A DNA stretch of 64,000 bases from an uncultured Gammaproteobacteria bacterium. GTDB taxonomy: Bacteria > Pseudomonadota > Gammaproteobacteria > UBA4575. Shown piece after piece: positions 1 through 37,510 of this stretch. The notes under the pieces are model-generated. The model saw only the letters and a program-made list of their open reading frames with translations, had not been told where the DNA came from and searched no databases. Both the position numbers and the translations under genes were made by a program. Within the stretch, counting starts at the first letter, position 1. Every line of letters starts with the position of its first letter. Location of the stretch: NCBI GenBank assembly GCA_963976865.1, contig CAXBLY010000003.1:11154-75153 (forward strand), read 5' to 3'.

Positions 1-450
1 GCCATGAAAATGTCGATGACAGGAACATTTCAGTATGCAAGGCATTTGCCGCCTGTACCTATGTCAGATTTTAATGTCTTTCACCGTTATTCGGCAAATT
101 ACCCATGGGTGAGTCATGCGCAATGGTTTATCAGCCAAATGTTACGTTGGGGCCAAATTGAAAGTTCTTTGTCAATCTCAGAGTTAGCTGCGAATGTTTA
201 TCGTCCGGATATTTACGTTAGAGCAGCAAATGAATTAGACATTGCTCATCCATTATCCAGTACGAAGAGTGAAGGGAACCATAGCAATAATTGGCAACTG
301 GATAATTCGGTAGGGAATGTCGCTATGGGACCAGATGAGTTCTTTGATCACCGTATATTTAATCCATCACAAGTCATAGATTATATATACGATTTTGATA
401 TTTTAGCACCGCGAGTATCAAAGCAGGAATTAGTAGAAGCCAATGTATAA
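1..450 (+). CDS. 3' end of an NrtA/NasS-like nitrate-binding protein gene, truncated by the window edge. It could be a periplasmic NrtA or a cytoplasmic NasS-type sensor.
   Basis: The C-terminal 148 aa align with the C-terminus of the full NrtA at 5367..6782 (motifs SMTGTF, DFNVF.RY, W.xxQMxRWGQIE, VY.PDIY). The reading frame is open back to base 1. Confidence 0.6.
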   Translation, partial: AMKMSMTGTFQYARHLPPVPMSDFNVFHRYSANYPWVSHAQWFISQMLRWGQIESSLSISELAANVYRPDIYVRAANELDIAHPLSSTKSEGNHSNNWQLDNSVGNVAMGPDEFFDHRIFNPSQVIDYIYDFDILAPRVSKQELVEANV

Positions 451-626
451 ATATAAAAATATGGGGAAGAATAATTAATGAATATAAACTTTGAAATTTC
501 TGATGTTGGTATCGCAATCATTAGCCCTGTAGTAGAGATAATTAATACATGCATATATGACTGCAATTTCAATATTAATAATCATTAACATGTTATTTTA
601 AGATATCAATAATTCAGAGATACGCT

Positions 627-2813
627 ATGTTATTCGGAAGGAACAGTAAAAACCCAATTAAGATAACAGACAAGGGTGTTGTTACATGGAAATACGCTAC
701 CTGTGGTTATTGTTCTACAGGATGCTCAATTGAAATTGGCCTGGATAAAAAGGGAGAACCGGTAACATCAAGAGGAGTCTCTGATGCTGATGTTAACCGT
801 GGGAAATTATGTATTAAAGGGATATACGAACATGAGCTATTTCGTAAAACAAAAGGGCGAGGTAACAAGCCTCTTGTTCGTGATAATCGTTGGGATGAAT
901 TTGAAGAAACAAGCTGGAATGATGCGCTCGAGAAGACAGCTAGCCAAATAAAAAATATTCAACAAAAACATGGTCGTGATGCTTTTGCAATTGTATCGAC
1001 AGGCCAGATAATGACGGAAGAATTTTATACCCTGGGAAAATTAGCTCGTGGTGTGATTGGTACCAATAACTATGATGGCAATACGACACTATGTATGTCC
1101 TCTGCTGTCTCAGGCTATAAACGCTCATTTGGATCTGACGGTCCACCGGGATGTTATGAGGACTTTGAACATACTGAATGTCTGTTGGCCTTTGGATCAA
1201 ATTTACCTGAACAGCATCCAATAATTTACTGGCGCTTGATGGACGTGCGCGAAAAACGCAAATTTCCATTAATAGTTGTTGATCCTCGCGTCACTATGTT
1301 TGCCCAACAGGCCGATATACATTTAGCTATCAAACCTGGTACTGATCTAGTACTGCTAAATGCTTTGGCGCATGTGATATTACAAGAGAATTCACATGAC
1401 CAAGAATATATTAAACGGCACACCCAGGGATTTGATGAATTTTCCAAACTGGTCTCACAATATGACCCTGTCACTGCATCAAAAATATGTGGAATAGATG
1501 AAGATACTATAAGACATGTAGCTCGTGTGTATGCAGAAGCAGGTGCAGCAATGTCTATTTGGACGATGGGTATTAATCAGAGTACACATGGATCAGATGG
1601 TGTAGCAGCGATTAATAATTTACATTTGATCACCGGAAATATTGGTAAACCAGGGGCATCTTCACTTTCTATCACGGGTCAATGTAACGCCATGGGAACG
1701 CGCGAATGGTCATCATGTTCAGGATTACCAGGTTATCGTGCCCTGGAAAGTGAACAAGACCGTCTTGAAATTTCCCAGTTTTGGGGAGTAGACCCTGAAT
1801 TTTTTCCTAAACAACGCGGTATGTTTATGACGGACATTCTACCTGCGATTGAAACTGGGCAGATCAAGGGTTTATGGTTGGTGGCTACTAACCCAATGAC
1901 GTCAATGGCGAATACTACACGTATACGTAAAACATTAGAAAAGCTGGATTTCCTTGTTGTTCAGGATGCTTATTCAGATGTTGAAACGAATCAGTACAGC
2001 CATGTTTATCTACCCGCGGCTATTTGGGCTGAGAAAGAGGGGTGTTTCACTAACACAGAAAGACGCGTCAATATTATTCGCAATGTATGCGAGCCACATG
2101 GTGATTCAAAAACTGACTTGTGGATATTTAATCAAATGGCAAAGCACTTTGAGCGAGGAAAAAAAGTGATATTTCCTGAATCTGCAGAAGGTGTATTTGA
2201 AGAATTAAAAACATTATCAAGGGGTCGTATGCTGGACTATTCTGGCATGACCTACGAGAAGATTGAGCAGTCTCGTGGTATTCAATGGCCATGCAATGAA
2301 GAAAATGCTCCGCAAGGTACGCAGCGCCTATATACCGATGGTGTCTTTCAAACATCTACGGGAAAAGCAAATTTACTGGCATTACCATTTATTGATAATA
2401 ATGAACGTCCAGATAAAGACTATCCTTTCTGGTTGAATACAGGTCGAGTTGTAGAGCATTTTCATACGCGCACTCGTACTGGGAAAGTAGCAAATGGTAA
2501 TAAATTTAGTCCTACTCCATATATGGAAATGAACCCAGATGCTGCAACTAAATTAGATATTAAGCATGGTACGTATGTGCGTTTAACTTCTCGTCGAGGA
2601 GACGCTATCGTTATGGTTCAGTTAACACAACGAGTGGCGAAAGACTCAGTATTTGTCCCCTTTCATTTTCATGAGTGTGTCAATCGTCTTGCGCTGGGGT
2701 TATTAGATCCGCATTCGCGTCAGCCTGCCTATAAACAAAGTGCTGTGTGTGTGGAAAGAATTGAAGATCAACAGGATGCTGCACAAAAAAATTCTATGGC
2801 GAGGTCTTATTAA
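627..2813 (+). CDS. nasA: Assimilatory nitrate reductase catalytic subunit (NasA/NarB-type molybdopterin oxidoreductase)
   Basis: 728 aa. N-terminal C-x2-C-x3-C [4Fe-4S] motif (CGYCSTGCSIEIG) with no Tat signal. MopB-family motifs throughout. Sits between NrtA-like genes, and its stop overlaps the next start (TAATG). Confidence 0.75.
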   Translation: MLFGRNSKNPIKITDKGVVTWKYATCGYCSTGCSIEIGLDKKGEPVTSRGVSDADVNRGKLCIKGIYEHELFRKTKGRGNKPLVRDNRWDEFEETSWNDALEKTASQIKNIQQKHGRDAFAIVSTGQIMTEEFYTLGKLARGVIGTNNYDGNTTLCMSSAVSGYKRSFGSDGPPGCYEDFEHTECLLAFGSNLPEQHPIIYWRLMDVREKRKFPLIVVDPRVTMFAQQADIHLAIKPGTDLVLLNALAHVILQENSHDQEYIKRHTQGFDEFSKLVSQYDPVTASKICGIDEDTIRHVARVYAEAGAAMSIWTMGINQSTHGSDGVAAINNLHLITGNIGKPGASSLSITGQCNAMGTREWSSCSGLPGYRALESEQDRLEISQFWGVDPEFFPKQRGMFMTDILPAIETGQIKGLWLVATNPMTSMANTTRIRKTLEKLDFLVVQDAYSDVETNQYSHVYLPAAIWAEKEGCFTNTERRVNIIRNVCEPHGDSKTDLWIFNQMAKHFERGKKVIFPESAEGVFEELKTLSRGRMLDYSGMTYEKIEQSRGIQWPCNEENAPQGTQRLYTDGVFQTSTGKANLLALPFIDNNERPDKDYPFWLNTGRVVEHFHTRTRTGKVANGNKFSPTPYMEMNPDAATKLDIKHGTYVRLTSRRGDAIVMVQLTQRVAKDSVFVPFHFHECVNRLALGLLDPHSRQPAYKQSAVCVERIEDQQDAAQKNSMARSY

Positions 2814-4648
2814 TGTACAAATATCTGCGATCCAGCGAACATGATTATGCGTTAATTAAAAAGGCTGGTCACCCTGAAAAGAATTGCTATAACCATCCGA
2901 TAGAAACTGTTCCTGAAGGTAGTGAGCTTAGGGATAAGAGTCTTCATATCAATCATGATGATGGGATTGGTGATAGTCCAGATCGTTACAAACAGCATGG
3001 CTTTTATTTTGCAGCAGATAACTGTATTGCCTGCCATGCATGTGAGGCTGCATGTTCCGAGAAAAATGATCTGCCTTCACATATTGCCTTTAGGTCCGTT
3101 GGTTATGTCGAAGGTGGATCTTACCCATCTTACAGTCGTCTGAATATATCAATGGCGTGTAATCATTGTGATGACCCCGTATGTTTAAAAGGCTGCCCAA
3201 CGCGTGCTTATACCAAATTTGCTGAATATGGTGCGGTATTGCAAGATCCGGATATTTGTTTCGGTTGTGGTTACTGCACCTGGGTTTGTCCATACAATGC
3301 ACCACAGCTTGATCATGAGGCAGGTCAAGTTGAAAAATGCAATATGTGTGTCGATCGACTGGAAGTAGGGTTAAAACCAGCCTGTGTTTCTGCCTGCCTG
3401 GCAGGCGCATTGGACTTTGGTGTAATAGAAACTATGCCCGAGAACAGGTCACAGCTGGAGACAACGATCCCAGGCTTCCCTACCAGTGATATAACTCACC
3501 CTAATATTCGTTTTCAGCAAACCAGAAGCTTGCCTAATGAGATGAAACGAACGGATAGTATGCCTATTCGTTATGAAAAAAATATGCAAGGTGATTATCA
3601 ACCTGAAGTCGATGAAAGGTCGCACGTCGTGCAATGGGGCTTGAAAAAGTTAAGTACACGTGAAAACCCTTTAGTTGTCTTCACGCTAATTTCACAGCTA
3701 GTGGTAGGCGCATTTATATTTTTATTTGCCGGACCTGAACTGGGTATAACAACCATTACAGCAACCGATAATCCTGTTGTTTGGTCATTATTGTTATTTG
3801 CCTTAATTGGTGCGCAAACACTCGCGCTAGTTATGTCGACGATGCACCTTGGTAAACCACATCGTTTTTATCGAGCATTTAATAATTTGAGATATTCGCC
3901 TGTGAGTCGTGAAGTAGCAGGTATTGCTGTATTTTATAACTTTCTTGGAGCTTACACATTATTAACAGGCTTACCTGTATTATTCACGTGGATGCCCGAT
4001 GCAGCGTTATCTGTCCTCATTAGTATTTCTGGTTGGGGAGCCACGCTATCCGGATTAGTAGCGCTATATTTTATGCATGCCATTTATCGTATACCTGCAC
4101 GTCCATACTGGAATCACTGGTCTGTCTTAAATGCTTTCTACGGGTCCATGATGTCATTAGGTCCATTACTGGTTGGCAGTTTATATTTATTAATAACTAT
4201 GTTTACTCACTCGGGAATTGTTGGTGCACTCAATAGCATTGCACTAATAATAGGGATAGGGTTAAGCATAGAACTAATCGGACTAATTCTGCATGCACGC
4301 TACTTGAAGAGTCATGCTGGCGAAGCTGAAGCGTCTCATCATCAACAGACTACACAATTTGGTAAAACGTATTGGCTTAGAAATAGTTTATTGATGCTTT
4401 CAACCCTCATGATGTTTATGTTAAGCGTGATTAATATTGACACGAATGCTGCAATATTGTGCTGGTGGATAGCCACTATTATGATAATTGTCTCTGCAAT
4501 ACTGGGGAGAAGTCTGTTTTATGCCTTAGTCATACCAACAACCATGCCTGGTGCTTTCTTCTGGAAAAACAAAGGTTTTGAAGAACATGCAAGAGAAACA
4601 GGACTTGCTAGCCGAACAGAAGCAGGTGTGCTTGTTAATGTGCATTAA
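2813..4648 (+). CDS. Fusion of a DmsB/NrfC-like 4x[4Fe-4S] ferredoxin domain with a polytopic DmsC/NrfD-like membrane anchor. Putative electron-transfer partner of the nitrate reductase.
   Basis: 611 aa. Four Cys clusters (CIACHACEAAC, CNHCDDPVCLKGCP, CFGCGYCTWVCP, CNMCVDRL...CVSAC). The C-terminal ~330 aa carry about 8 hydrophobic helices. ATG overlaps the nasA stop. Confidence 0.65.
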   Translation: MYKYLRSSEHDYALIKKAGHPEKNCYNHPIETVPEGSELRDKSLHINHDDGIGDSPDRYKQHGFYFAADNCIACHACEAACSEKNDLPSHIAFRSVGYVEGGSYPSYSRLNISMACNHCDDPVCLKGCPTRAYTKFAEYGAVLQDPDICFGCGYCTWVCPYNAPQLDHEAGQVEKCNMCVDRLEVGLKPACVSACLAGALDFGVIETMPENRSQLETTIPGFPTSDITHPNIRFQQTRSLPNEMKRTDSMPIRYEKNMQGDYQPEVDERSHVVQWGLKKLSTRENPLVVFTLISQLVVGAFIFLFAGPELGITTITATDNPVVWSLLLFALIGAQTLALVMSTMHLGKPHRFYRAFNNLRYSPVSREVAGIAVFYNFLGAYTLLTGLPVLFTWMPDAALSVLISISGWGATLSGLVALYFMHAIYRIPARPYWNHWSVLNAFYGSMMSLGPLLVGSLYLLITMFTHSGIVGALNSIALIIGIGLSIELIGLILHARYLKSHAGEAEASHHQQTTQFGKTYWLRNSLLMLSTLMMFMLSVINIDTNAAILCWWIATIMIIVSAILGRSLFYALVIPTTMPGAFFWKNKGFEEHARETGLASRTEAGVLVNVH

Positions 4649-4669
4649 GCTAAATGTTGCAATAAATCT

Positions 4670-5041
4670 GTGCGAACACCATATATATCATCTAAAAAAT
4701 TATCAGAAATTGATAGTGAATTTGAAATGGGCGTGTTTGTGGTTACCTATCGGTCAAAAAAACAAAGGCTGCGCAGAAAGTTTGCTGCACTGATTCTTGC
4801 CCTCAAGCATGGGCTGAGAGGGTTCCTGTTTAGTTGGCCCCTGTATCTTCTCCCGTTCTCGGTGCTGGCAATGCCAGATCAATATAAATATCTGTTTATC
4901 ATATTTTCGTTGCCAGGTTTATATGTCTCTTTCATTATCTTAAAAAAAGGTATTGTTGAAGATTATTTGGAATTCGTCTCTGATCGCTTGCTAAATGATG
5001 GTTATGCCAACATGTTGCTATTTAATACATCACGGCATTAA
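4670..5041 (+). CDS. Hypothetical small membrane protein (weak call)
   Basis: 123-aa ORF with hydrophobic segments. GTG start with no clear RBS. It lies between the Fe-S protein gene and the nrtA leader. Confidence 0.2.
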   Translation: MRTPYISSKKLSEIDSEFEMGVFVVTYRSKKQRLRRKFAALILALKHGLRGFLFSWPLYLLPFSVLAMPDQYKYLFIIFSLPGLYVSFIILKKGIVEDYLEFVSDRLLNDGYANMLLFNTSRH

Positions 5042-5256
5042 GTGATACCAATTTTATAACGAAAGATTACAGTGCATATGAAAATTACTTGCACTAAGTA
5101 GGGGCGAGAATATATTAATGGAAAATACTATATTAAAAAATACTAATAAAAACAATCAGTTACAATTTTATAATACTTGGCAAGCTATTTGCTAATTTAC
5201 TAGTCAAGGTAAGTTAAAAAAACATATATAGAAATAATTGCGTACACCAATGAGGG

Positions 5257-5324
5257 TGTGACGCAATAACGACAAAGGCGTCATCGTGTTCCAGTACTTA
5301 GGAAGCACGTTGACGCCTTTTTTT
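5257..5324 (+). promoter_or_regulatory. 5' leader attenuator of the nrtA operon: an intrinsic terminator hairpin plus an overlapping alternative (antiterminator) hairpin
   Basis: Terminator: GGCGTCATCGTG (5277-5288) pairs with CACGTTGACGCC (5306-5317), followed by TTTTTTT (5318-5324). About 40 nt upstream of the nrtA RBS. The upstream hairpin TGACGC (5259-5264) / GCGTCA (5278-5283) shares the 5' arm of the terminator. Confidence 0.6.
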
Positions 5325-5366
5325 ATGGCCAATAATTTTATGGAATTCAATCCAAGGAGAGTATCT

Positions 5367-6782
5367 ATGAATCATGTTTGCAATTCACTCGCGCCAGCAA
5401 TGAATAACGTAATGGGGTATACCAAACATTACTTGATGGGTGCATTGATTGTTATGAGCATGATAATTGCTCATCATGCTTATGCTGAAAATCTTGGATA
5501 CCCGGAAAAAGAAGAGCTTAAATTTGGATTTATTAAATTAACAGATATGGCACCAATTGCCATAGCTTATGAAAAAGGTTATTTCGAAGATGAAGGCCTG
5601 TATGTCACAGTAGAGGCTCAGGCAAACTGGAAAGTATTGCTTGATGGTGTGATTGACGGGCAACTAGACGGTGCACATATGCTTGCTGGTCAACCAATCG
5701 CAGCCACAATGGGATTCGGTACTAAAGCACATATCATTACACCATTCTCAATGGACTTGAATGGCAACGGCATTACAGTTTCAAATGAGATATGGAAACA
5801 AATGAAACCTAATATTCCAACAATGGATGATGGAAGACCTCAACATCCTATTAAGGCAGATGCGTTAAAGCCTGTTGTAGAAAAGTATAAGAATGAGGGT
5901 AAACCTTTTAATATGGGAATGGTATTTCCTGTGTCTACTCATAACTACGAATTACGTTACTGGCTAGCAGCAGGTGGAATTCATCCAGGTTACTATGCTC
6001 CCCATAAGGGCGACATATCAGGGCAAATAGATGCAGATGCATTATTATCTGTAACGCCACCCCCACAGATGCCAGCAACCTTGGAGGCAGGAACAATTTA
6101 TGGCTATTGTGTGGGTGAACCATGGAATCAGCAAGCAGTTTTCAAGGGTATTGGTGTGCCTGTAATAACTGACTACGAGATTTGGAAGGATAACCCGGAA
6201 AAAGTATTTGGAATTACCGCTGAATTCGCAGAAAAGTATCCCAATACCACTATCAGAATTGTTCGCGCTATGATTCGTGCGGCAATGTGGTTGGATCACA
6301 ATGATAATGCTAACCGCCCTGAGGCGGTAAAAATATTATCACAGTCAAATTATGTAGGTGCTGATTACGATGTGATTGCAAATAGTATGACAGGTACTTT
6401 TGAATATGAAAAAGGTGATAAGCGTGAAGTACCAGACTTTAATGTCTTTTTTAGATACAACGCGACATATCCATATTACTCCGATGCAATTTGGTATCTA
6501 ACTCAAATGCGCCGTTGGGGACAAATCGAAGAAGACAAATCTGACAGTTGGTATAAAGAAATGGCTGCTAAAGTTTACAAGCCTGATATTTATAAAAAAG
6601 CGGCAATGACATTAATCGATGAAGGGTTAGCGAAGGCTAAAGACTTCCCGGACTTTGCTACTGAAGATGGATATAAAGAACCTCAAAATGAATTTATCGA
6701 TGACATCACATTTGATGGTAAAAAACCCAATGAATACATCGATCAATTCCCAATTGGCCTAAAGTCAGGCGATAAAATTTAG
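5367..6782 (+). CDS. nrtA: Nitrate/nitrite ABC transporter periplasmic substrate-binding protein
   Basis: AGGAGA RBS 7 nt before ATG 5367. Signal peptide ([17 protein letters not shown]). NrtA/CmpA-family motifs. Followed by permease and ATPase genes. Confidence 0.8.
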
Positions 6783-6812
6783 ATAATTAACAAAGTTTTG
6801 AAGGAAGTATAC

Positions 6813-7808
6813 ATGAGCGCTGCAACCTCTTTATCGACCAAACTGAATATGACAAACATTTCACCAAGAATCTCTGGTGTCATTGCCAATTCGCTGAAAA
6901 ATTTAGTGATACCTCTGGTGGGTATTGTATTATTTTTAGCTTTCTGGTCAGTTGCGGCCTCTAATATCAATACATCATTGGGAAAATTTCCTGGGCCAAA
7001 TTCTGTATGGACACAATTAAATTCCTTGTATGTAGAACATAGGGAAGAAAGAAAAAAAGAAACAGCATTTTATCAGCGTCAGGAAAAGAGAAATGCAGAG
7101 CGTGTTTCTCAAGACCCGGGTTACAAACCAAAGATTAGGGCATATACAGGAAAAGAAACATTTTTAGACCAAATTGTAACAAGTCTGGTGACAGTGATGA
7201 GCGGGTTTTTACTCGCGGCCATTATTGCTATTCCATTAGGAATAGCAATAGGCTTGAGTAAAACGCTAAATACTGCTTTTAATCCTGTCATTCAAATATT
7301 TAAACCAGTTTCTCCGTTAGCATGGTTACCATTGGTCACCATGGTTGTCAGTGCCCTTTATGCTACGCCTGATCCGGTGATACCAAAATCATTCCTGACT
7401 TCGATGATTACGGTAACACTCTGTTGTTTATGGCCAATGATTATCAACACTTCGGTTGGTGTCGCATCTATTAATTCGGACTTGGTTAATGTGAGTCGCG
7501 TGTTGCGTTTACCCGCATTAAAGCATGCGCAAAAAATTGTTTTGCCAGCATCTGTTCCGATGATATTTACTGGTATGCGCACATCACTGGGTATTGCCTG
7601 GATGGTACTAATTGCAGCTGAAATGCTCGCACAAAATCCTGGATTAGGGAAATTTGTTTGGGATGAATTTCAAAATGGAAGCTCGGATTCTCTAGGGAGA
7701 ATTATGGCTGCAGTGATAGTTATCGGTGTGATTGGCTTCATATTAGATCGTTCAATGTTACAGATTCAAAAATATGTATCCTGGGATAAAGCGACTGCAA
7801 GTCGATAA
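6813..7808 (+). CDS. nrtB: Nitrate ABC transporter permease
   Basis: Polytopic membrane protein with a BPD-transporter signature (EAA-like loop ...AAEML). RBS GAAGGAAG 5 nt before ATG 6813. Confidence 0.8.
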   Translation: MSAATSLSTKLNMTNISPRISGVIANSLKNLVIPLVGIVLFLAFWSVAASNINTSLGKFPGPNSVWTQLNSLYVEHREERKKETAFYQRQEKRNAERVSQDPGYKPKIRAYTGKETFLDQIVTSLVTVMSGFLLAAIIAIPLGIAIGLSKTLNTAFNPVIQIFKPVSPLAWLPLVTMVVSALYATPDPVIPKSFLTSMITVTLCCLWPMIINTSVGVASINSDLVNVSRVLRLPALKHAQKIVLPASVPMIFTGMRTSLGIAWMVLIAAEMLAQNPGLGKFVWDEFQNGSSDSLGRIMAAVIVIGVIGFILDRSMLQIQKYVSWDKATASR

Positions 7809-7845
7809 ATTTAATTACATACAACATAGTAAATGGAATCAAGTC

Positions 7846-8691
7846 ATGAGTGAGTTACTAAACATTAGTAGTGTGGATATGGTATTTCCAACACCTAAAG
7901 GAGAATTTACAGCCTTAACAGATATCAATTTAAAAATTGATAGAGGAGAATTTGTAACCTTGATAGGCCATTCTGGATGTGGAAAATCAACAGTGCTAAA
8001 TATTGTTGCAGGTCTTCATCAGGCAACATCTGGAGGCGTGATCCTTAATGATAGAGAAGTGACAGAACCCGGGCCGGAGAGAGCAGTGGTGTTTCAGAAT
8101 CACTCATTGCTTCCCTGGTTAACTGCCTATGAGAATGTTGAACTTGCAGTGAAACAAGTGTTTAGTAAAACCAAATCCAAGGCGGAAATGAAAGAATGGA
8201 TTGAGCATAACTTGCATTTAGTGCATATGGATCATGCTATGCATAAGCGCCCGGATGAGATCTCTGGAGGCATGAAACAACGTGTTGGTATTGCAAGAGC
8301 GTTGTCAATGCAACCTGAAATATTATTAATGGACGAACCATTCGGTGCGTTAGATGCGCTGACACGTGCACATATGCAAGACTCATTAATGGAGATTCAG
8401 AATGAACTCAATAATACAGTGATTATGATCACGCATGATGTTGATGAGGCTGTACTACTTTCCGATCGTATTGTAATGATGACCAATGGTCCTTCGGCCA
8501 CGATTGGTGAAATTTTGCCCATAAATCTGGAAAGACCAAGAGACAGGGTAAGCTTGGCGAGTGAACCAGAATATATTAAGTTAAGACAAGCAGTGCTTGC
8601 ATTCTTATATGAAAAGCAGCGAAAAATTGAAAGTATTAATACAAAAGAAAAAAGCAAGAGTAATCACGGATCAGAAGTAGCAGTAGCCTAG
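7846..8691 (+). CDS. Nitrate ABC transporter ATP-binding protein (NrtD/NasD-like)
   Basis: Walker A GHSGCGKST, ABC signature LSGGMKQR, Walker B LLMDEPF. Start chosen at the internal ATG (MSELLNISS), which avoids overlap with nrtB. Confidence 0.8.
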   Translation: MSELLNISSVDMVFPTPKGEFTALTDINLKIDRGEFVTLIGHSGCGKSTVLNIVAGLHQATSGGVILNDREVTEPGPERAVVFQNHSLLPWLTAYENVELAVKQVFSKTKSKAEMKEWIEHNLHLVHMDHAMHKRPDEISGGMKQRVGIARALSMQPEILLMDEPFGALDALTRAHMQDSLMEIQNELNNTVIMITHDVDEAVLLSDRIVMMTNGPSATIGEILPINLERPRDRVSLASEPEYIKLRQAVLAFLYEKQRKIESINTKEKSKSNHGSEVAVA

Positions 8692-8969
8692 TGCTATATC
8701 GTTATAACGCTCAACAAGATCAAATGTCTGTAGATATAATCGACTATATTTAAATGATATAACTTACAACTATGGACTTTAAGGGCTAGATTGTGCCATT
8801 AATGTCATCAATGAAACTATCCCGGCCACATTATAGTCATTTGCTGTACTTGTGTTGCGAATATAAAAGTCCGGAATGAATAAAAAGAGCTAATTGCTGG
8901 CTGTATTAGTCATCAATATATAATAGCTTTGTATCCAGCGTTGAGAGTTATATGATTGTCTTGCACTGA

Positions 8970-10517
8970 CTAATATACATCTCGCAAGTAACGTTTGCTT
9001 TTAGCCATTGACTTTAAAAACTCATTGGCATCATGTTCATCCATGTTACCGTGCTCCTGAACGATTTTCTGTAGAGCATCATCAACATCTTTTGCCATTC
9101 TCTGTGCGTCACCGCATACGTAAAAGTAGGCGCCATCAGAAATCCATGACCAAATATCTTTTGCACATTCAAGCATACGATGCTGTACATAAATCTTATT
9201 ATCCTGATCGCGGGAAAATGCAGTGCTTAATTGGGTTAAACAACCAGTATCTACAAATTTCATCAACTCTTCTTTGTATAAAAAGTCACTCTCTTCATTA
9301 GGATTGCCAAAGAACAGCCAGTTTTTGCCGAGGTCACCACGCAGGCTGCGTTCATGCAAAAATGCCCTAAACGGTGCTACGCCAGTACCTGGGCCAACCA
9401 TGATTACAGGAGCATCACAGTCCTCTGGGAGTAAGAATTCATGAGTAGGCTGGATGTAAATGCGAACATATTCATCACTTTGAATGCGATGGGATAAAAA
9501 TGTAGATGCTACACCAACTCGATGACGGTCGCGTCTAGTGTATTCAACGACACCGACTGTGGCATGAACTTCGTCTGGGTGAGCTCGCAAAGTTGAAGAT
9601 ATTGAATAAAGGCGTGGCTGTAATTTGTCAAGTCGATGAACTAATTTTGAAGGATCAGTCTTTATACTTGTATAGTCTTCAAATAGTTCCAGTAAATCAC
9701 ATCCTTCATCAATGCCTTCTTCTGCTAGCGTTTTAAGCGCTAATTTTTCGTTTTCATTACTGGCACATTCGCTTAGATAGAGAATAGCATCGTCAGAGGG
9801 CTTAGTAATATCCAGGTAGTTGACGAGAAGATCGAATAAAGTATGTTCATAATTATCAAGTACGACAGTCAAATCTCCATCGACTTCTAAATGAGTAATA
9901 ATCTCTCTTGCTAATTCAGGCGGATTTTTAGGATAGATGCCTAAAGCATCTCCTGGTTGATATGTGATACCACTGTCAGCAAGGCTAATCTCTATATGAC
10001 GAATATCTTTACTGGAACCATTCGAAATGAGTGGTGTTACATGTTTAACTCTGGCTAAAAACGGGTTTTTACGATCATACTGAAAGTGTTTACTATTGTC
10101 TGATACTGAATTTATCTGAGATTCTGTTACTTCTTCGGTTGGCGCATTTGCCATTAAGCTCTTTAGTTGTTTTGAGGTTGGTCTGCCTCCAGGTGTACAT
10201 AATGTCAGCTCTGATTCTGCGCCTGTGACAATTGCTTCAGCATATGTTTTGCATAAGTATCCGCATTGTCCGCAATCTTGTTGTCCCATTACAGCCATCA
10301 CTTGCTGTTTAAATGGACGTTCTTTCGCCAGCTCTATGCGCTCTTCCAGTGGCAAAGTGTCATCATGCCATGGATAGTCTTCCTCTTCTAAGTCGATTGC
10401 TGTCGCTGTATCGGTAGTTGTGTTCTCAAGACCCATATAACCGACAAAGAAACCATTCAGCCATGCTCGCTGATCAGCACTAAACGGAGCATTTTCAGGA
10501 ATTATTTGTATCGTCAC
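8970..10517 (-). CDS. CysJ-like NADPH-dependent FAD reductase that lacks the flavodoxin (FMN) domain. Putative reductase partner of the sirohaem nitrite/sulfite reductase.
   Basis: C-terminal 380 aa align with the E. coli CysJ FNR module (RLYSISS, GPGTGVAPFRAF, C-terminal RYLRDVY). N-terminus has the CysJ-like AWLNGFF motif. A short CGQCGYLC segment sits where the flavodoxin domain would be. Confidence 0.7.
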   Translation of the reverse strand: MTIQIIPENAPFSADQRAWLNGFFVGYMGLENTTTDTATAIDLEEEDYPWHDDTLPLEERIELAKERPFKQQVMAVMGQQDCGQCGYLCKTYAEAIVTGAESELTLCTPGGRPTSKQLKSLMANAPTEEVTESQINSVSDNSKHFQYDRKNPFLARVKHVTPLISNGSSKDIRHIEISLADSGITYQPGDALGIYPKNPPELAREIITHLEVDGDLTVVLDNYEHTLFDLLVNYLDITKPSDDAILYLSECASNENEKLALKTLAEEGIDEGCDLLELFEDYTSIKTDPSKLVHRLDKLQPRLYSISSTLRAHPDEVHATVGVVEYTRRDRHRVGVASTFLSHRIQSDEYVRIYIQPTHEFLLPEDCDAPVIMVGPGTGVAPFRAFLHERSLRGDLGKNWLFFGNPNEESDFLYKEELMKFVDTGCLTQLSTAFSRDQDNKIYVQHRMLECAKDIWSWISDGAYFYVCGDAQRMAKDVDDALQKIVQEHGNMDEHDANEFLKSMAKSKRYLRDVY

Positions 10518-12304
10518 GATGCTATTTTTACCTCTTCTTTATGTTGTAATAACTCGAGTAATGTTTCACAGGTATTTCGTGCAGCAAATTCAAAGAAGGG
10601 TTCTGATTCATCTGTTCTATGTCTCATATACACTTCCAGGATATTGGCAATAAGTTGAGGAATCAGTTCTGCGTCAACATTTTTCATAAATTCTTTTGCG
10701 ATGGCCTGGGAGTCAGAAAAACCTCCACCAAGAAATACGTCATATCCGTCAATTGGATCTGAATCTTCACCCACGTCTACTTTAGTCGCAAGAAGACCTA
10801 TATCTCCGATGTAATGTTGTGCGCAAGAATGATGACAACCTGTTAAATGAATATTAATTGGTTGATCAAGACTGATTTTAGATTCTACATAATCTGCAAT
10901 ATTCGTAGCATGCAGTTTGGTATTTGCATTGGCAAATTTGCATCCCCAACTTCCTGTGCAGGCAATCAGGTTTGCTCGAATATTACTTGCAGTCCAATGA
11001 AGACCTAACGACTCTATTCTTTCTTTTACTGTATCAATATTTTCATTTTTGATATCAGAGATAATTAAATTCTGCCAAACAGTAAGGCGAATACAGCCAC
11101 TTCCATATTGTTCTGCAATATCAGCAAGTCCGTACATTTGTTCTGTTTCTATTCTGCCAACTGGACAGACTATTCCTATGTACGATAAGTCTTCCTGTTT
11201 TTGCTTGTGTACACCTATATGTGCCATACGATCGATCTTGGATCGTGTAATACAGTTTTCTAATGGGAACTTGACCAGCTCAAATTCACATTGTTCTGTG
11301 ACTGCCTGCATGAATTTCTCTAACCCCCAGTCATCAAGAAGGTATTTTAAACGTGCTTTATTGCGATCAGTTCGATCGCCGTTATCTATAAAGACACGGA
11401 TTACTGCTTTTGCCATGGGTATGCATTGCTCTGGTGTAAGAAGGATACCAGTATCACAGGCAAAATCTTCGTGACCGGTTATTCCACCTAATTGCATCCT
11501 GAAATAAACACCGGGTTTAATGCTATTCGAATTATCTTCAACTTTAACAGCTGCAAAACCAATATCATTGGTATCTTCAAGTACGCTGACAGCGCCACCA
11601 CCATCGAATGCAATATTGAATTTTCGAGGTAATCCATACATGTCTCTGTGATATAAAATATAATAATGTAATTCACGTGCTAGCTCGCGCGTATCATAAA
11701 TCTCATCAGCTGAAATTCCTGACAATGGGTTGCCTGTTACATTGCGAATATTGTCAGCGCCGGAACCACGATTCATAACACCAAGATCCTGCATTCCTAA
11801 TAATAGTTTAGTGGCATCATGTGCTCCGACTTCACGAAGCTGTAGGTTTGCACGAGTCGTTATATGTGTGTAACTCCCGCCATACTGGGAAGTGAGGTCG
11901 GCAATTCCCCTAAATTGTGTTGCATTTATAATTCCATTTGGCATACGCAGACGGGACATAAAAGAATTTTGCGCAGGCGCGACATAAAATAAGCCATGAA
12001 ACTTATATCGAAATACATCTACTCCTTTAGGAAAAACACCTTCATTAGCGTTTTTCACCATTTGATCCCAGTAATCAAATGGATGATGCTCACGTTTGGC
12101 TTTTTCTTCATTACATAACTTTTTACCAGCCTGTAAATACTTGTTTTGTGCCTGAATATGCAGTGCATCAGGATTGATTCCAATAGGGACGCCATAGTCG
12201 GATTCAGCTTTGGAACTGTCAGGCATATTTGTCTTTGCTATCTGCAAGCCACTTGCTAAACCTTCTAAATAACGCATTTGTTCAATGCTGAAATCTTCTT
12301 CCAT
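10514..12304 (-). CDS. Sirohaem-[4Fe-4S] nitrite/sulfite reductase haemoprotein (NirA/CysI family). The context favours assimilatory nitrite reductase.
   Basis: 596 aa. N-terminal MSRLRMPNG...ITTRANLQLR motif. Cys cluster motifs CTGSWGC and TGCHHSCAQHYIGDIG. Stop overlaps the downstream gene by 4 nt. Its leader carries an attenuator similar to the nrtA leader. Confidence 0.7.
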   Translation of the reverse strand: MEEDFSIEQMRYLEGLASGLQIAKTNMPDSSKAESDYGVPIGINPDALHIQAQNKYLQAGKKLCNEEKAKREHHPFDYWDQMVKNANEGVFPKGVDVFRYKFHGLFYVAPAQNSFMSRLRMPNGIINATQFRGIADLTSQYGGSYTHITTRANLQLREVGAHDATKLLLGMQDLGVMNRGSGADNIRNVTGNPLSGISADEIYDTRELARELHYYILYHRDMYGLPRKFNIAFDGGGAVSVLEDTNDIGFAAVKVEDNSNSIKPGVYFRMQLGGITGHEDFACDTGILLTPEQCIPMAKAVIRVFIDNGDRTDRNKARLKYLLDDWGLEKFMQAVTEQCEFELVKFPLENCITRSKIDRMAHIGVHKQKQEDLSYIGIVCPVGRIETEQMYGLADIAEQYGSGCIRLTVWQNLIISDIKNENIDTVKERIESLGLHWTASNIRANLIACTGSWGCKFANANTKLHATNIADYVESKISLDQPINIHLTGCHHSCAQHYIGDIGLLATKVDVGEDSDPIDGYDVFLGGGFSDSQAIAKEFMKNVDAELIPQLIANILEVYMRHRTDESEPFFEFAARNTCETLLELLQHKEEVKIAS

Positions 12305-12371
12305 TATTTAAATCCACTTATATTGGTAATATTCATTCGTTATACATAAAGACATTTTGTAAAAGTATTAT

Positions 12372-12422
12372 GCAAAAAAAAACGACGCATCGAACTTGTG
12401 TGAAATTTGATTTGACGTCGTT
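12372..12422 (-). promoter_or_regulatory. 5' leader terminator-like hairpin plus U9 tract, about 70 nt upstream of the nirA-like start codon
   Basis: On the minus-strand transcript, AACGACG (rc of 12416-12422) pairs with CGUCGUU (rc of 12381-12387), followed by nine U (plus-strand A-run 12374-12382). Confidence 0.5.
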
Positions 12423-12797
12423 GTCTGTTGATTCTCTAAGCGGCAAGCAGTTTGTTATCTAGCCTGCAAGGCTGAATCAAGTATATATTAGGTACAGCAA
12501 AAATCGCGCCATATGATACTTTCCTTTGGATGGACCTAACTTATTGTTATTTGGTAAAGAGATAAAGAATAACCGTGATATGCGTGCTGGAATGGTGCAA
12601 TAAAACAAATTTTTGCACCATAAAAGTTCACAAAGACGGCTAACCAATATGGGTTTAGTGCGTCATTGATTTACTATATGTAAGTGTCAATAATGTATTG
12701 AGAATCCTTCAGGTTTTTAATAAATAATAACTGCGTAGGACCTCTACTATTATCAGATATAGGGCAATAAGATAGTTTGAATATCAGGTCAGTTAAC

Positions 12798-13739
12798 TTA
12801 AGGCCCAAACCAGAATTCCAAATTCTTCTCCAGGAACTCATCAAAACGCATATAATGCGAACCATCACAGGAGAAATTCAGGCCTACCATGCCATTAATG
12901 ATATTTAGTGAACCTGATCTTAAGTATATATTCTCATCTGCAAACCGTAGTTTACGAAAAAGCTCAAAAATTGAGGCTACATCATTGGCTGGCACAATTG
13001 CCCGTTCATGATATGGCCGTCCTGGGTAGGCAAGACAGATATCTGGATCCACCAATTCATCTATACTTAATATACGGTAGGTAAAAGGGTCATCTACCAC
13101 CCATATTGTTGCGCGACTACTGGAGAAATGAAGCTTGCCATGGAAGATGCCAAGCTCAGTTATTAACTCATTCATAATATGCAAGACGTTATCCATATTA
13201 TTATCTAATTGGCTTTCAACACGTTCCTGATTAAACAATACACTGCGAATTGCAGGATCTCCCTTAATTTGACGCCAATTGCCCGGTTCCTGATATCCTT
13301 CCTTTATTCCGGGTAGTTCTCTTAAGTCAAAATCTGCACCGAGAAATCCTGCTATCTCACCCTTGATGCCATGTATTACCTGGATTGCAGTGAATGAAGG
13401 TCTTTTCCTGTTGCGGCTGATGTAGGCATCAGATAATTTGAAATCTGTTGTGCCAATGATGCCCTGCATATACGGGCGATCCATACGATCACGGCCAAAG
13501 TGCCTGCCATCTTTGCCTGTTTGTGTAATGTTGTCTGTTATCTGTTTTCCGTCAGCATCGAGAATAAAAAGATGCTTGCAATAGGTCAGCTGTGGAAACA
13601 CCTCGGATAACATTCGCTCAAGTTCATTGCGATCATTGAGCATGGGCATGCATTTCGCCGCAAGCTGATGCAGTTCCTTACTTAACAACGCTGTTATTTT
13701 TTCACGTTGTAATCGTATTGCCTGTCTGATATTACTCAT
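12798..13739 (-). CDS. Hypothetical cytoplasmic protein
   Basis: 313-aa ORF with no TM segments and no recognisable catalytic motif. Lies between the nirA leader/promoter and the czc operon. Confidence 0.4.
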   Translation of the reverse strand: MSNIRQAIRLQREKITALLSKELHQLAAKCMPMLNDRNELERMLSEVFPQLTYCKHLFILDADGKQITDNITQTGKDGRHFGRDRMDRPYMQGIIGTTDFKLSDAYISRNRKRPSFTAIQVIHGIKGEIAGFLGADFDLRELPGIKEGYQEPGNWRQIKGDPAIRSVLFNQERVESQLDNNMDNVLHIMNELITELGIFHGKLHFSSSRATIWVVDDPFTYRILSIDELVDPDICLAYPGRPYHERAIVPANDVASIFELFRKLRFADENIYLRSGSLNIINGMVGLNFSCDGSHYMRFDEFLEKNLEFWFGP

Positions 13740-31790: not shown

Positions 31791-32396
31791 ATGGATAATT
31801 GTCAGCAAAGATATATGAATCAGAATAAGCATTGGTGTATCTATCTGTTGTCTATTATTGCGATGACTGTTTCATCAGTTGCATATTCTGCAGATAGCAG
31901 TGTTAAAAAGCCTCATCAATTGTCAGCTGAAGAAAGCACTTCTGGTAAAATAACAACAGAGTCAAGTTATCAGCCGATGGGTCATTCTGTTGATGTGCAA
32001 AAATTAATGTCGCATGAAGATGAATTTTCACGCCTAGACTTAAATCATGATGGTGTTATTTCTCAGAATGAAGCTAAAAGTGAATATGCACTAAGAGATT
32101 CTTTTTCAAGTGTTGATGATGACGCTAACAATGAAATTTCTGTGCATGAATTTAAGGGATACTACCAGTTGAGGTACGGAAGTATTGCTAATACACGTCC
32201 ATTAAAGCATCTGGGCGAAGGTGAAAATTCGACCCAGACATTTAGCTATTATGACGCGAATGGCGATGGATCAATTTCTATCAAAGAATTTTCACGTAAA
32301 ACTGGAAAGGGCAGTGATGGAGTGCCTGATTCAAATCAGAAAAAACCATCTGGTGCTGCATTGAAAGAAAACCAATACGATCCAGATCCTAAATAA
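31791..32396 (+). CDS. Secreted EF-hand calcium-binding protein
   Basis: Signal peptide. EF-hand loops DLNHDGVISQNE and DANGDGSISIKEF. Paralogous to 34952..35371 (shared LRYGSIANTRP / IRYGAIANAKP). AAGGAGA RBS. Confidence 0.7.
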   Translation: MDNCQQRYMNQNKHWCIYLLSIIAMTVSSVAYSADSSVKKPHQLSAEESTSGKITTESSYQPMGHSVDVQKLMSHEDEFSRLDLNHDGVISQNEAKSEYALRDSFSSVDDDANNEISVHEFKGYYQLRYGSIANTRPLKHLGEGENSTQTFSYYDANGDGSISIKEFSRKTGKGSDGVPDSNQKKPSGAALKENQYDPDPK

Positions 32397-32428
32397 GTAA
32401 GCGATCTTATACATCATTACTGAACAAG

Positions 32429-32454
32429 GGCGTGACTTCTGTCACGCCTTTTTT
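32429..32454 (+). terminator. Rho-independent terminator after the EF-hand gene
   Basis: GGCGTGAC-ttct-GTCACGCC followed by TTTTTT. Confidence 0.8.
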
Positions 32455-34636: not shown

Positions 34637-34951
34637 TATTCCTTATATTTTCACGAAGCTTTATTTTGTGTGTAGATAACCACAATTTTTTCATGCAGGT
34701 AAGGTGCCATTAAATGACTGTATACATCAAGTTCATTTCTGAAAATATCATGCTCTAAGTATATTACAGCAATCGTAATGTGCATATTCACCATAAACTA
34801 ATCTCACTGTTGTTCAAATGAACAATAACCAGTGTGTGAAAAAGACTTATTGCGAATACTATTTGAGAGAATGGCTATATAGCAGTGAATATGCGAAGTG
34901 GCACTATCTGTGCATAAATAGTATTGAAGTGACAATTTGCGGTGTTTGAGA

Positions 34952-35371
34952 ATGAAAAAATCAATACAAATAGTTCAGGCATGTTTATGGATGAGCTTGC
35001 TATCAGGATATCCATTACTTGCAGATGACAGTTCAGTTGTACAGTCATCAGACTATCAACATCAGTTTTTAGCGATTGACCATGATCAGAATGGTTATAT
35101 TTCAAAACTGGAATCTTTGTCTGAATTACCGCTTAGTGATTCTTACAATAACTTTGACTTGAATAACGATGAGCGTATTTCTGCCAAGGAATTTCGTCCG
35201 TATTTTAATATTCGGTATGGCGCTATCGCTAATGCTAAACCTAGCGAGGGTGCAGAAATTGTTCCTGGCAAAGAAAATTCATTTTATTTGTTGGATAAAG
35301 ACAAAAATGGTGTGATTACGATAGATGAATTTTCAGGAATTAAGTTAAAAAATTGTGAGGCTGAATCATAG
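34952..35371 (+). CDS. Secreted EF-hand calcium-binding protein, paralogue of 31791..32396
   Basis: Signal peptide. EF loops DHDQNGYISKLE, DLNNDERISAKEF and DKDKNGVITIDEF. Confidence 0.7.
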   Translation: MKKSIQIVQACLWMSLLSGYPLLADDSSVVQSSDYQHQFLAIDHDQNGYISKLESLSELPLSDSYNNFDLNNDERISAKEFRPYFNIRYGAIANAKPSEGAEIVPGKENSFYLLDKDKNGVITIDEFSGIKLKNCEAES

Positions 35372-35402
35372 TAAACAAGCTAAATATTAAGGAGAAAATA
35401 TC

Positions 35403-35570
35403 ATGTTAACGTGGGCATTGTTGTTTTTTATTGTTTCAATTGTCTCAGGTGTACTCGGATTTTACGCAATTGCAGGTACTGCGGCACTGATTGCCAAAAT
35501 ACTGTTTTTTGTATTTCTAATAGCATTTTTAATTGCGATTGTAAGAGGCAGGACAAGGCCGATTGCTTAG
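35403..35570 (+). CDS. UPF0391/DUF1328 small membrane protein (55 aa), absent from the ORF track
   Basis: MLTWALLFFIVSIVSGVLGFYAIAGTAALIAKILFFVFLIAFLIAIVRGRTRPIA. AAGGAGAAAA RBS. Confidence 0.75.
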   Translation: MLTWALLFFIVSIVSGVLGFYAIAGTAALIAKILFFVFLIAFLIAIVRGRTRPIA

Positions 35571-35633
35571 TGACAATTGCATAGTAATTATGATGACTAG
35601 TAAAGAATATATATTTTTTAATAAGCAGGAGAT

Positions 35634-35924
35634 ATGAATATGGGTATGAAAGAAGCATATGAGAAAAAGATAACTTCACAACTGGATTCCTGGAATGCGG
35701 AACTTGACAAGTTAAAAGCCAAGGCTGACAAAGCTGAGGGTGACGTTCAGTTGGAATACTATAAGCAAATTGAGGAAATTAGGACAATGCAGGCTACTGC
35801 ACATGAAAAACTAAATGAACTCAAAGACGCTAGTGATGACGCCTGGGAAGACTTGAAAGCTGGTGTTGATAGTGCATGGAATTCACTAGGAAATGCGTTA
35901 AAGGACGCATCTTCAAGATTCTAA
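35634..35924 (+). CDS. Small coiled-coil protein (hypothetical stress protein)
   Basis: 96 aa, helical and rich in K/E/A. AGGAGA RBS. C-terminal W...L..G..SAW..L pattern shared with the next gene. Confidence 0.55.
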   Translation: MNMGMKEAYEKKITSQLDSWNAELDKLKAKADKAEGDVQLEYYKQIEEIRTMQATAHEKLNELKDASDDAWEDLKAGVDSAWNSLGNALKDASSRF

Positions 35925-35974
35925 CGGAATCAAATAGCCAAATATCATATTTAAATTAAACACGGAGAATCGAA

Positions 35975-36448
35975 GTGAATTATAGTTATACAGGCAAGAA
36001 TATAGTAATGATTACGTTTCTTACTTTGCTGCTAGTTGTTTTTGGCACCAGCCATGCTGGCTCAGATGCTGAAACAACTTCTTTTGAAGAAGTCAAAGAC
36101 GACACACAGGAGTTACTCAGTTCATTGAAAGACTATAGCGCAGACAAAAAAGATGTGGCTGTAGAGAAATCCAAACAAGCCTTGCATAGGCTGGATGAAC
36201 GCATTGAAAAGCTTGAAGAGGGTGCTGAGCAAAGATGGAGTGAGATGAGCGATGATGCAAGACAAAAATCCAGAGAAAGTCTGGAAGCATTGCGAAATCA
36301 GCGCGCTGAAGTTGCAAAGTGGTACAGGAGTATGAAAGAAAGTTCTGGCGAGTCTTGGGGACATGTTAAGTCCGGGTTTTCAGATGCTTATCAGGCTATG
36401 TCCGATACCTGGGAGCGGGTTGAAGAGGAGTTTTCTGAGAGCAGCTAA
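35975..36448 (+). CDS. Secreted coiled-coil protein, paralogue of 35634..35924
   Basis: GTG start after a GGAGAA RBS. Signal peptide. Shared C-terminal pattern (SWGHVKSGFSDAYQAMSDTWERV). Confidence 0.55.
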   Translation: MNYSYTGKNIVMITFLTLLLVVFGTSHAGSDAETTSFEEVKDDTQELLSSLKDYSADKKDVAVEKSKQALHRLDERIEKLEEGAEQRWSEMSDDARQKSRESLEALRNQRAEVAKWYRSMKESSGESWGHVKSGFSDAYQAMSDTWERVEEEFSESS

Positions 36449-36584
36449 TAATAATTTGTAATGTACAAGAGAAGCACAAAGTTGTTATTTTTATCCTATG
36501 GCTTTGTGCTTTGTCTCTTTCTGGTAAATGCCTGATTAAGGGATTTTCTACTAATTCTCATAAGGAATAAAAATGAAATAGTAA

Positions 36585-36887
36585 TTATTGTGTATTCCTT
36601 ATTTTATCAATTAACCCTGCTTTATTTAAACGGCTTCTACCTTTAATATTTAACTGTTTCGCACGATTATATAATTCATCCCTGGTTCTGTCTTCAAGTC
36701 GTGAATTAGGGTTCCCTGTCCCCATGGTTGTCTTATTACGAGTTTTTTCATTTAGTCTTCTGTGTTTGTTTACAACACGTGCAGCTATTTCTTTCGCCGT
36801 CTGGTTTTGTTCGCCATCACGTACCAGGCTATCTTTTATGTGTCTGTATTGACGTTTGTCTTTGTTGCGCCACTCATTCTGAATCAT
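36585..36887 (-). CDS. Small basic protein with a Rho-N/SAP-like helix-extension-helix motif
   Basis: C-terminal ELYNRAKQLNIKGRSRLNKAGLIDKI resembles the Rho-termination-factor N-terminal motif found in small stress proteins. Confidence 0.5.
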   Translation of the reverse strand: MIQNEWRNKDKRQYRHIKDSLVRDGEQNQTAKEIAARVVNKHRRLNEKTRNKTTMGTGNPNSRLEDRTRDELYNRAKQLNIKGRSRLNKAGLIDKIRNTQ

Positions 36888-36904
36888 GAAATATCCTCTG
36901 TGGT

Positions 36905-37102
36905 TTATGCAATGCGTTTAGGTTTAGGTTTTCCTGGTTCCTTTATGGGGGGTGTTGGTTTCTTCTCTGGTGGCAAATCCGGGTCACCTGGCGGTATTAC
37001 TGGATCTTTTGGATCTTCAGGTTTCACAGGATCACCTGGTGGCATAGGTATCTGTGATGATTTGCCGTTGTGAGTCACTACCGTGTTGTGATTGTTATTC
37101 AT
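36905..37102 (-). CDS. Small proline-rich protein (65 aa)
   Basis: Strong RBS TTAGGAGATCATCATG. Repetitive P-[DE]/K-P composition. Confidence 0.45.
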   Translation of the reverse strand: MNNNHNTVVTHNGKSSQIPMPPGDPVKPEDPKDPVIPPGDPDLPPEKKPTPPIKEPGKPKPKRIA

Positions 37103-37150
37103 GATGATCTCCTAAAAATTATTTAAAACTAATTAATTATCTTTAAACTA

Positions 37151-37510
37151 TTATTTAAGCCAATCGATAGCTTCTGATTTATTGATATGGTCAAAGTGTT
37201 TTACTTCTGAATCAATAAACAGCTTTATTAGTTGTGACAGCATCATTACATTGTTGTTGTCTGATACTACTGCTACCTTATTAAGAATTTTTCCTTTTTC
37301 TCGTATTACTTCCAGATGTGCCTTAAAGGCTGATAGATCTTTCCAGTGTGGAACAGATTCAGTGTCGACCAATAAACCCTTTATCAGATTCCCTTCGTTA
37401 ATATAGTTATCAATTGCATCAGATAAGCTCTTGAGGTCGTTTTTATTCAATTCACCTTTTGGCATTAAATATAAAATATGATCGCTTTTATTGATTTCTA
37501 TCTCCATCAT
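37151..37510 (-). CDS. STAS/SpoIIAA-like small protein (DUF3478-like)
   Basis: About 120 aa. Start placed at the internal MMEIEINK after an AAGGAA RBS. Confidence 0.45.
   Translation of the reverse strand: MMEIEINKSDHILYLMPKGELNKNDLKSLSDAIDNYINEGNLIKGLLVDTESVPHWKDLSAFKAHLEVIREKGKILNKVAVVSDNNNVMMLSQLIKLFIDSEVKHFDHINKSEAIDWLK

Follow-up and report, generated by a model that had tools for sequence, protein, structure and literature searches.

The nrtABC operon of this uncultured marine gammaproteobacterium lies in a cluster of nitrate-assimilation genes at the left end of the 64-kb stretch of DNA that we analysed (the window; Table 1). The window opens with the 3' end of an NrtA-like gene, followed at 627-5041 by three further genes. 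These encode a NasC/NasA-like molybdopterin nitrate reductase (728 aa) that scores below the NCBIfam equivalog cut-offs; 3' of it, a 611-aa protein in which a DmsB-like 4Fe-4S protein is fused to a DmsC-like membrane anchor; and next a 123-aa protein (stop at 5041) that has hydrophobic segments and matches no family. For an assimilatory nitrate reductase, an electron-transfer partner anchored in the membrane is unusual. The same trio is kept in the closest genome relative, the MAG Gammaproteobacteria PL25a_bin.154 (locus L001; NrtA and NasT each 89% identical), where the gene order is nasT-nasS-nirB-nirD-nasA-orf611-orf122-leader-nrtABC. In L001, nirBD (2485-5263) stands between nasS and the nitrate reductase in place of the NirA and CysJ-like pair of the window; the nitrite-reductase module has been swapped within an otherwise syntenic cluster.

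Contigs extending the window were retrieved with the exact 728-aa nitrate reductase (627-2813) as the look-up query. The contig of this window recurs in Tara Oceans, JGI and SRA assemblies, and a 399-kb Tara Oceans scaffold (L081) is 100% identical to window positions 1-12813, with 0 mismatches. The portion of the genome inspected was 73 kb, comprising the 64-kb window and a 9.4-kb left extension. The preliminary description had guessed that the gene at the window edge was nasS and that nasT lay farther upstream; L081 carries nasT and then nasS to the left of the window, so the guess was correct. The truncated reading frame (1-450) shares 73% identity with the C-terminal end of the NMT1_2 protein encoded 3' of nasT in L001. 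NasT combines an N-terminal receiver with a C-terminal ANTAR domain, and beside its gene lies that of the NrtA-like NasS, whose N-terminus (MADTSSNSESD...) is hydrophilic and, judged by eye, lacks a hydrophobic signal segment, in contrast to NrtA with its hydrophobic leader. A distinction between NasS without and NrtA with an export signal has been drawn before (PMC3795266).

Within the window, Pfam scans of 47 ORFs found neither an ANTAR nor a NIT domain. From 56 NasT homologues we built a custom ANTAR HMM, whose best E-value over all six-frame ORFs of 40 aa or more was 0.27 (positive control, 3e-26), in agreement with the earlier statement that the window encodes no ANTAR regulator. Across the 73 kb, the REC-ANTAR NasT was the sole ANTAR protein, and no single NIT-ANTAR protein of the NasR kind was found; judged by gene content, the regulator appears to be of the NasS/NasT type, not NasR. 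Of 80 genome loci, only 36 showed a NasT homologue in the flanking sequence that was fetched, and nasT sits directly 5' of the nrtA leader in many orthologous loci.

Table 1. Coordinates of the leader elements and associated genes (window positions unless scaffold L081 is named)
Feature	Position	Strand	Basis or remark
nasT, 195 aa, REC+ANTAR	L081 7523-8110		Response_reg 9.2e-12, ANTAR 1.3e-12; 1.26-1.85 kb left of window
nasT-nasS intergenic leader	L081 8282-8370		fold z = -3.67; about 1.0-1.1 kb left of window edge
nasS full gene, 435 aa	L081 8517-9824		NMT1_2 E=9.9e-90; directly left of window
nasS-like gene, 3' end (cytoplasmic NrtA-like nitrate sensor), cut by window edge	1-450	+	
sigma-54-type promoter TGGCAAGCTATTTGCT	5178-5193	+	pattern match; -24/-12 element; GG 5179-5180, GC 5191-5192, 10 nt between
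P1 hairpin UUGCGU-a-CACC [AAUGAG] GGUG-ug-ACGCAA	5238-5266	+	MFE and centroid folds
P2 mini-hairpin GAC [AAAGGC] GUC	5271-5282	+	-2.2 kcal/mol; proposed antiterminator element
intrinsic terminator stem-loop	5274-5320	+	-26.7 kcal/mol; GC-rich; R1 covariance model 42.2 bits
U7 tract of terminator	5318-5324	+	read from sequence
RBS AAGGAG of nrtA	5354-5359	+	read from sequence; 7 nt before ATG 5367
nrtA (nasF-like periplasmic nitrate-binding protein)	5367-6782	+	NMT1_2 E=2.3e-98; N-terminal hydrophobic signal-like segment
nrtB permease	6798-7808	+	BPD_transp_1; TIGR01183 ntrB 165 bits, below cut-off 209
nrtC/D ATPase	7774-8691	+	TIGR01184 351.9 bits, above cut-off 291.8
CysJ-like flavoprotein, N-terminal Fe-S domain	8970-10517	-	NF004859 627.3 bits
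nirA-family nitrite reductase (sirohaem)	10514-12304	-	NF007126 NirA family 901.5 bits
nirA-leader attenuator: P2 GAC[AACGAC]GUC, terminator, U-run	12425-12414, 12421-12382, 12382-12374	-	sequence, fold
sigma-54-type promoter TGGCGCGATTTTTGCT of nirA operon	12511-12496	-	pattern match

Terminator and hexaloop hairpins of the nrtA leader

The sigma-54-type promoter upstream of nrtA would place the start of transcription near 5204. We also considered an NtrC-type site (TGCACT-N5-GGGGCG, 5090-5106) ~100 nt 5' of this promoter, but the match is weak and we do not claim it. A simple promoter scan found no sigma-70 promoter in the nrtA leader. Elsewhere in the window, a sigma-54-dependent activator is encoded at 39403-40878 (Sigma54_activat 3.7e-60, HTH_8; no receiver domain detected). 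Matches to TGGCA-N7-TGC cluster near it (34694, 34899, 36043, 37725 and 38371) and adjoin EF-hand, SpoIIAA-like and Fe/Mn superoxide dismutase genes; the region 34694-40878 may represent a separate sigma-54 regulon.

The 171-nt leader folds at -50.6 kcal/mol, compared with -31.1 +/- 3.6 kcal/mol for 200 dinucleotide shuffles (z = -5.45; none of the 200 was as good). Its most prominent element is a terminator hairpin in which GGCGTCATCGTG (5277-5288) pairs with CACGTTGACGCC (5306-5317), with a single T-T mismatch at 5284/5310. Three A-U pairs (5274-5276 with 5318-5320) prolong the stem outward and UUCC/GGAA prolongs it inward. The strong terminator of the preliminary description, with a 12-bp stem, one T-T mismatch and seven U, is thus borne out, as is its placement within the leader, 3' of the sigma-54-type promoter and 5' of the nrtA RBS. 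The spacing given there, about 40 nt before the RBS, needs correction: the end of the U-run lies 30 nt from the RBS and 43 nt from the nrtA ATG. A simple promoter/terminator scan did not list the hairpin, presumably owing to the mismatch and the bulge in its stem, but both a dedicated terminator finder and our covariance model (R1, below) detected it. Within the leader of the nitrate-transporter operon, the hairpin is predicted to serve as a genuine signal for ending transcription.

Two smaller hairpins precede or overlap the terminator. P1 (-12.8 kcal/mol) has ten base pairs with an internal loop and forms with a pair probability of about 1.0 in the nascent RNA (5204-5300). It presents the hexaloop AAUGAG (5249-5254), whose first residue is A and whose fourth is G (A1/G4). 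After a linker of 4 nt comes P2, which has only three base pairs here, C5270/A5283 directly below being a mismatch; its hexaloop, AAAGGC (5274-5279), likewise carries A1 and G4, and its pair probability is 0.58 before the 3' arm of the terminator is made. The terminator 5' arm begins with nine residues (5274-5282) that also make up the loop and 3' half of P2. Because these residues are shared with the base of the terminator, P2 and the terminator are mutually exclusive. RNA substrates of ANTAR proteins are defined by a dual hairpin whose stems each have 3 bp or more, by A1/G4 hexaloops and by the position of the second hairpin at the 5' base of a terminator (PMC3369931; PMC8164766). At the level of sequence the nrtA leader shows every one of these features, and the search for a dual-hexaloop ANTAR motif that had been suggested for this leader therefore gave a positive answer. 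The P2 pattern GACAAMGRCGTC occurs exactly twice in the 64-kb window (0 expected), in the nrtA and nirA leaders only, and both copies are preceded by a sigma-54-like promoter.

A different competitor for the terminator had been put forward in the preliminary description, namely a hairpin between TGACGC (5259-5264) and GCGTCA (5278-5283) that overlaps the terminator 5' arm. The complementarity does exist (6-7 bp) and slightly exceeds in length what shuffles of that arm give (7 vs 4.5, p about 0.06). However, the hairpin (-7.2 kcal/mol) requires that the lower stem of the more stable P1 open first, and its pair probability in the nascent RNA is 0.0001, far below the values for P2 and P1. It is missing in L001, the closest orthologue, where the complementarity amounts to 4 bp. 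Nor is it seen more widely: among 43 orthologous leaders with P1 near P2, the longest complementary stretch shared by the P1 3' arm and the terminator 5' arm has a mean of 3.6 bp, compared with 4.1 bp in shuffles, and is significant in none. On energetics and lack of conservation we dropped this pairing as an antiterminator, a role that is most improbable, and treat it as incidental. The conserved competitor of the terminator is predicted to be the 3-bp P2, GAC[AAAGGC]GUC, instead.

Conservation of the proposed switch and further copies

We examined 160 loci encoding NrtA orthologues (75-89% identity) from marine gammaproteobacterial genomes and metagenomes. In a terminator-first test, in which P2 was not required, 146 loci had usable upstream sequence and 108 had an intrinsic terminator no more than 300 nt from nrtA. 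P2 was counted when an A1/G4 hexaloop hairpin of at least 3 bp contributed its loop or 3' half to the terminator 5' base. By this measure P2 was present at 101 of the 108 nrtA-upstream terminators (94%), compared with 65 of 1448 control terminators (4.5%; odds ratio 307, p=2e-104); the controls probably include some further NasT targets. The hexaloops of the orthologous leaders are mostly AACGGC, AAUGGC, AACGAC or AAAGGC. Among the 101 leaders, 61 have a TGGC[AC]N7TGC match within 250 nt 5' of P2 (background 0.025 per 250 nt), and 75 have at least one extra A1/G4 hexaloop hairpin of at least 4 bp no more than 120 nt upstream of P2 (background 0.18).

The covariance model R1 was built from genome loci only and tested on independent metagenome loci, where 52 of 53 matches at E<=1e-3 lie directly upstream of nrtA. 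Across 50 distinct independent sequences, the three inner P2 pairs are 100% paired, with double changes between GC and AU in 20 for each pair, while slid controls are 30-45% paired. For the terminator, 86% of the cells in the independent alignment A2 are paired and 126 show double changes (slid controls, 43-62% paired). Both P2 and the terminator are therefore conserved with compensatory change in sequences outside the R1 training set. Alignment columns 13-14 show covariation with two partners, the 5' half of P2 outside the terminator and the 3' arm of the terminator itself, a pattern that marks a conserved either/or switch. Lack of conservation in orthologous nrtA leaders had been named as a finding that would count against a switch; what we found is conservation with covariation.

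R1 is largely a terminator model. Its weak matches in the window include the reverse strand of the hairpin at 5274-5320 and a site at 32421-32454 (+; 19 bits, E = 0.033) just past the EF-hand gene at 31791-32396. The latter is most likely an ordinary terminator, so R1 is only moderately specific.

Compared with the window, L001 replaces GGCGUCA/UGACGCC in the terminator by GGUGUCA/UGACACC and reads GAC[AGAGGU]GUC at P2. It also keeps a hairpin at the P1 position, with a rearranged stem and the loop AACGAA. A metagenome scan for closer relatives of the leader, in which fine-scale covariation of P1 could be followed, gave a best match only 88% identical in NrtA, so that P1 is directly comparable only with L001. 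Many orthologous leaders have three to four A1/G4 hexaloop hairpins and not two (L011 9760-9899, L039, L040, L045, L010); those of L011 include CCUGCC[AAGGGC]GGCAGG, CACAGC[AAAGGC]GCUGUG and GAGC[AAAGAC]GCUC. The additional hairpins may bind more than one NasT dimer or serve as alternative P1 partners.

Two further leaders of the cluster carry a similar arrangement. The nirA-leader attenuator lies 70 nt before nirA (R1 19.1 bits, E=0.03). A canonical A1/G4 P1 was searched for in this leader and not found, the sole nearby hairpin being AGCC[UUGCA]GGCU; not every target, it follows, fits the dual-hairpin rule. The nasT-nasS leader on L081 (R1 17 bits, E = 0.1) has P1 UCGC[AAAGUA]GCGA at 8282-8295, P2 GAC[AACGAC]GUC at 8318-8329, and a terminator with U7 ending at 8370. 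The weak R1 scores of the nirA and nasS leaders count only jointly with the exact P2 pattern. We propose that the nrtA, nirA and nasS leaders form a small NasT regulon, in which NasT could control its own inhibitor NasS together with the downstream nitrate reductase, an arrangement of negative feedback.

A candidate nitrate-responsive attenuator and its alternatives

We consider it highly probable that the nrtABC leader is an ANTAR-type transcription attenuator controlled by NasS/NasT. The observations behind this reading are the anatomy and thermodynamics of the leader, the exclusivity of P2 and the terminator, their conservation and covariation in about 100 leaders, and the adjacent nasT and nasS. 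The transcription start, the binding of NasT, the response to nitrate and the dependence on NtrC are presumed by analogy, the steps of the mechanism being drawn from characterised systems (PMC3369931, PMC3795266, PMC10783516).

The sigma-54 promoter suggests that NtrC, and with it nitrogen limitation, exerts the first control. When nitrogen is limiting, NtrC and sigma-54 would start transcription, probably near 5204, and P1 (5238-5266) would form in the nascent leader. Without nitrate, NasS would hold NasT, and the terminator (5274-5320) with its U7 tract would form and stop transcription by default at 5318-5324, before nrtA. With nitrate or nitrite present, the cytoplasmic NrtA-like NasS would release NasT, and a NasT dimer would bind the A1/G4 hexaloops of P1 and P2 and hold the weak 3-bp P2 (5271-5282) closed. 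Closed P2 would occupy 5274-5282, the base of the terminator beside the U tract, and polymerase would read through into nrtABC. The same type of switch is proposed to operate before nirA (minus strand, 12511-12374) and before nasS.

A simpler account would have the terminator end or insulate the nasS-nasA-orf611-orf123 unit without regulation, with the nrtABC promoter downstream of it. The hairpin does lie 233 nt past the stop of the 123-aa ORF (5041), and a simple scan found no other terminator between 5041 and 5274. However, the terminator is 3' of a conserved sigma-54 promoter, and the same type of scan found no sigma-70-like promoter between 5324 and 5367. The excess of P2 on nrtA-upstream terminators over other terminators holds whatever the upstream gene, and the P2 5' half covaries with the terminator despite lying outside it. 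We judge an unregulated terminator to be very unlikely; the ending of upstream transcripts may be a secondary role of the hairpin. A riboswitch that senses a ligand, or a leader peptide acting through the ribosome, would also use alternative structures within a leader, as seen here. Against these, no Rfam riboswitch matched the leader, its sole ATG (5250) falls within the loop of P1, lacks an RBS and starts a frame of three codons, and the conserved features are two small hexaloops of the protein-binding type with no ligand pocket; we give such mechanisms almost no credence.

An ANTAR attenuator could also answer to a regulator other than the adjacent NasT, either a NasR-type NIT-ANTAR protein or a distant ANTAR protein. 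The leader of Klebsiella nasF, an nrtA homologue, is a classic NasR target (PMC3369931), and the genome was inspected over only 73 kb. Yet the scanned ORFs of the window yielded no ANTAR or NIT domain protein, the only ANTAR protein in those 73 kb is paired with NasS in the nas cluster, and the placement of nasT directly upstream of the leader recurs in many orthologous loci. A distant or NasR-type regulator is not needed to explain the leader, and we regard one as very unlikely indeed. The preliminary description had left the choice between NasT- and NasR-type antitermination open; its ANTAR layout stands, through the ANTAR motif and the adjacent NasS/NasT pair, and the NasR type does not.

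Control by NasS/NasT would supply a testable logic for nitrate uptake in an uncultured, widely sampled marine gammaproteobacterium, in which sigma-54 (nitrogen limitation) is combined with NasS/NasT antitermination (nitrate). More tentatively, the nrtA leaders of marine gammaproteobacteria might constitute a distinct, uncurated class of ANTAR-target RNA, with a three-leader regulon and nasT-nasS feedback here. This is a joint reading that we think possible but would not presume. The class would be marked by a sigma-54 promoter, by one to three A1/G4 hexaloop hairpins whose loops follow the consensus AA(N)G(G/A)C, and by fusion of P2 to the terminator. If it is true, free NasT would switch on its inhibitor NasS together with the nitrate reductase, a built-in negative feedback. 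Before nrtA, about 100 related marine genomes and metagenome contigs carry a leader of this design, which Rfam misses at curated thresholds; therefore, a dedicated covariance model would improve the annotation of the nitrate-assimilation regulon in ocean metagenomes.

Relation to known RNA families and ANTAR systems

The leader is a well-formed new example of a known mechanism and reveals no new one. It resembles two Rfam families without being a member of either at the curated threshold: it scores 26.7 bits against P11 (RF00625; gathering 70), which we take to be the NalA region, and 27.3 bits against narK (RF03032; gathering 43.2). Both sub-threshold alignments anchor on the promoter element (5178-5193) and on GACAAAGGCGUC, the P2 sequence, which aligns to the Rfam P11 consensus. 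The narK alignment covers a promoter-like 5' end, TGGCA...TTGC, and the 3' end ACGACAAAGRCGUC. At the E-value level, the leader and the whole of L081 gave only these sub-threshold narK and P11 matches, and at the gathering level seven orthologous loci gave no match. A search of the literature on P11 and the narK motif yielded no useful information.

The NasS/NasT-NalA system of Pseudomonas putida and P. aeruginosa, which acts on the nirBD leader, pairs a REC-ANTAR NasT with an NrtA-like NasS, as here (PMC10783516). The NalA leader is built of two hexaloop hairpins, in which A1 and G4 are essential, and a Rho-independent terminator behind them; NtrC and RpoN are required for its transcription to initiate (PMC10783516, also citing Romeo et al. 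2012). The dual hexaloops and terminator resemble those of the nrtA leader, for which sigma-54 is suggested by the promoter sequence. However, NalA serves nirBD, whereas the leader described here serves nrtABC and is accompanied by separate nirA and nasS leaders. In Paracoccus denitrificans, the NasS-NasT/nasA system likewise has nasT and nasS beside the nas genes and an NrtA-like, signal-less NasS. There NasT binds a leader RNA with ANTAR-type hairpins, and the separation of complexed NasS and NasT upon nitrate or nitrite is a biochemical property (PMC3795266). That organism is an alphaproteobacterium with a single nasABGHC unit, in contrast to the three separate leaders of this marine gammaproteobacterium.

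The nasF leader of Klebsiella oxytoca M5al, as far as the work is summarised in a later paper, is subject to nitrate-responsive antitermination by NasR (Chai and Stewart 1998, 1999, via PMC3369931). In that summary the first gene is the same as here, and an A1/G4 hexaloop hairpin precedes the terminator, with a second mini-hairpin at its base. The Klebsiella regulator described there, however, is the single NIT-ANTAR protein NasR, whereas here a NasS/NasT pair is present and no NIT domain was found. The EutV system of Enterococcus faecalis differs further, in that it serves the ethanolamine pathway and its signal is phosphorylation by EutW, but the eut leaders define both the dual-hairpin substrate and the mechanism by which P2 excludes the terminator, and these are shared by the nrtA leader (PMC3369931).
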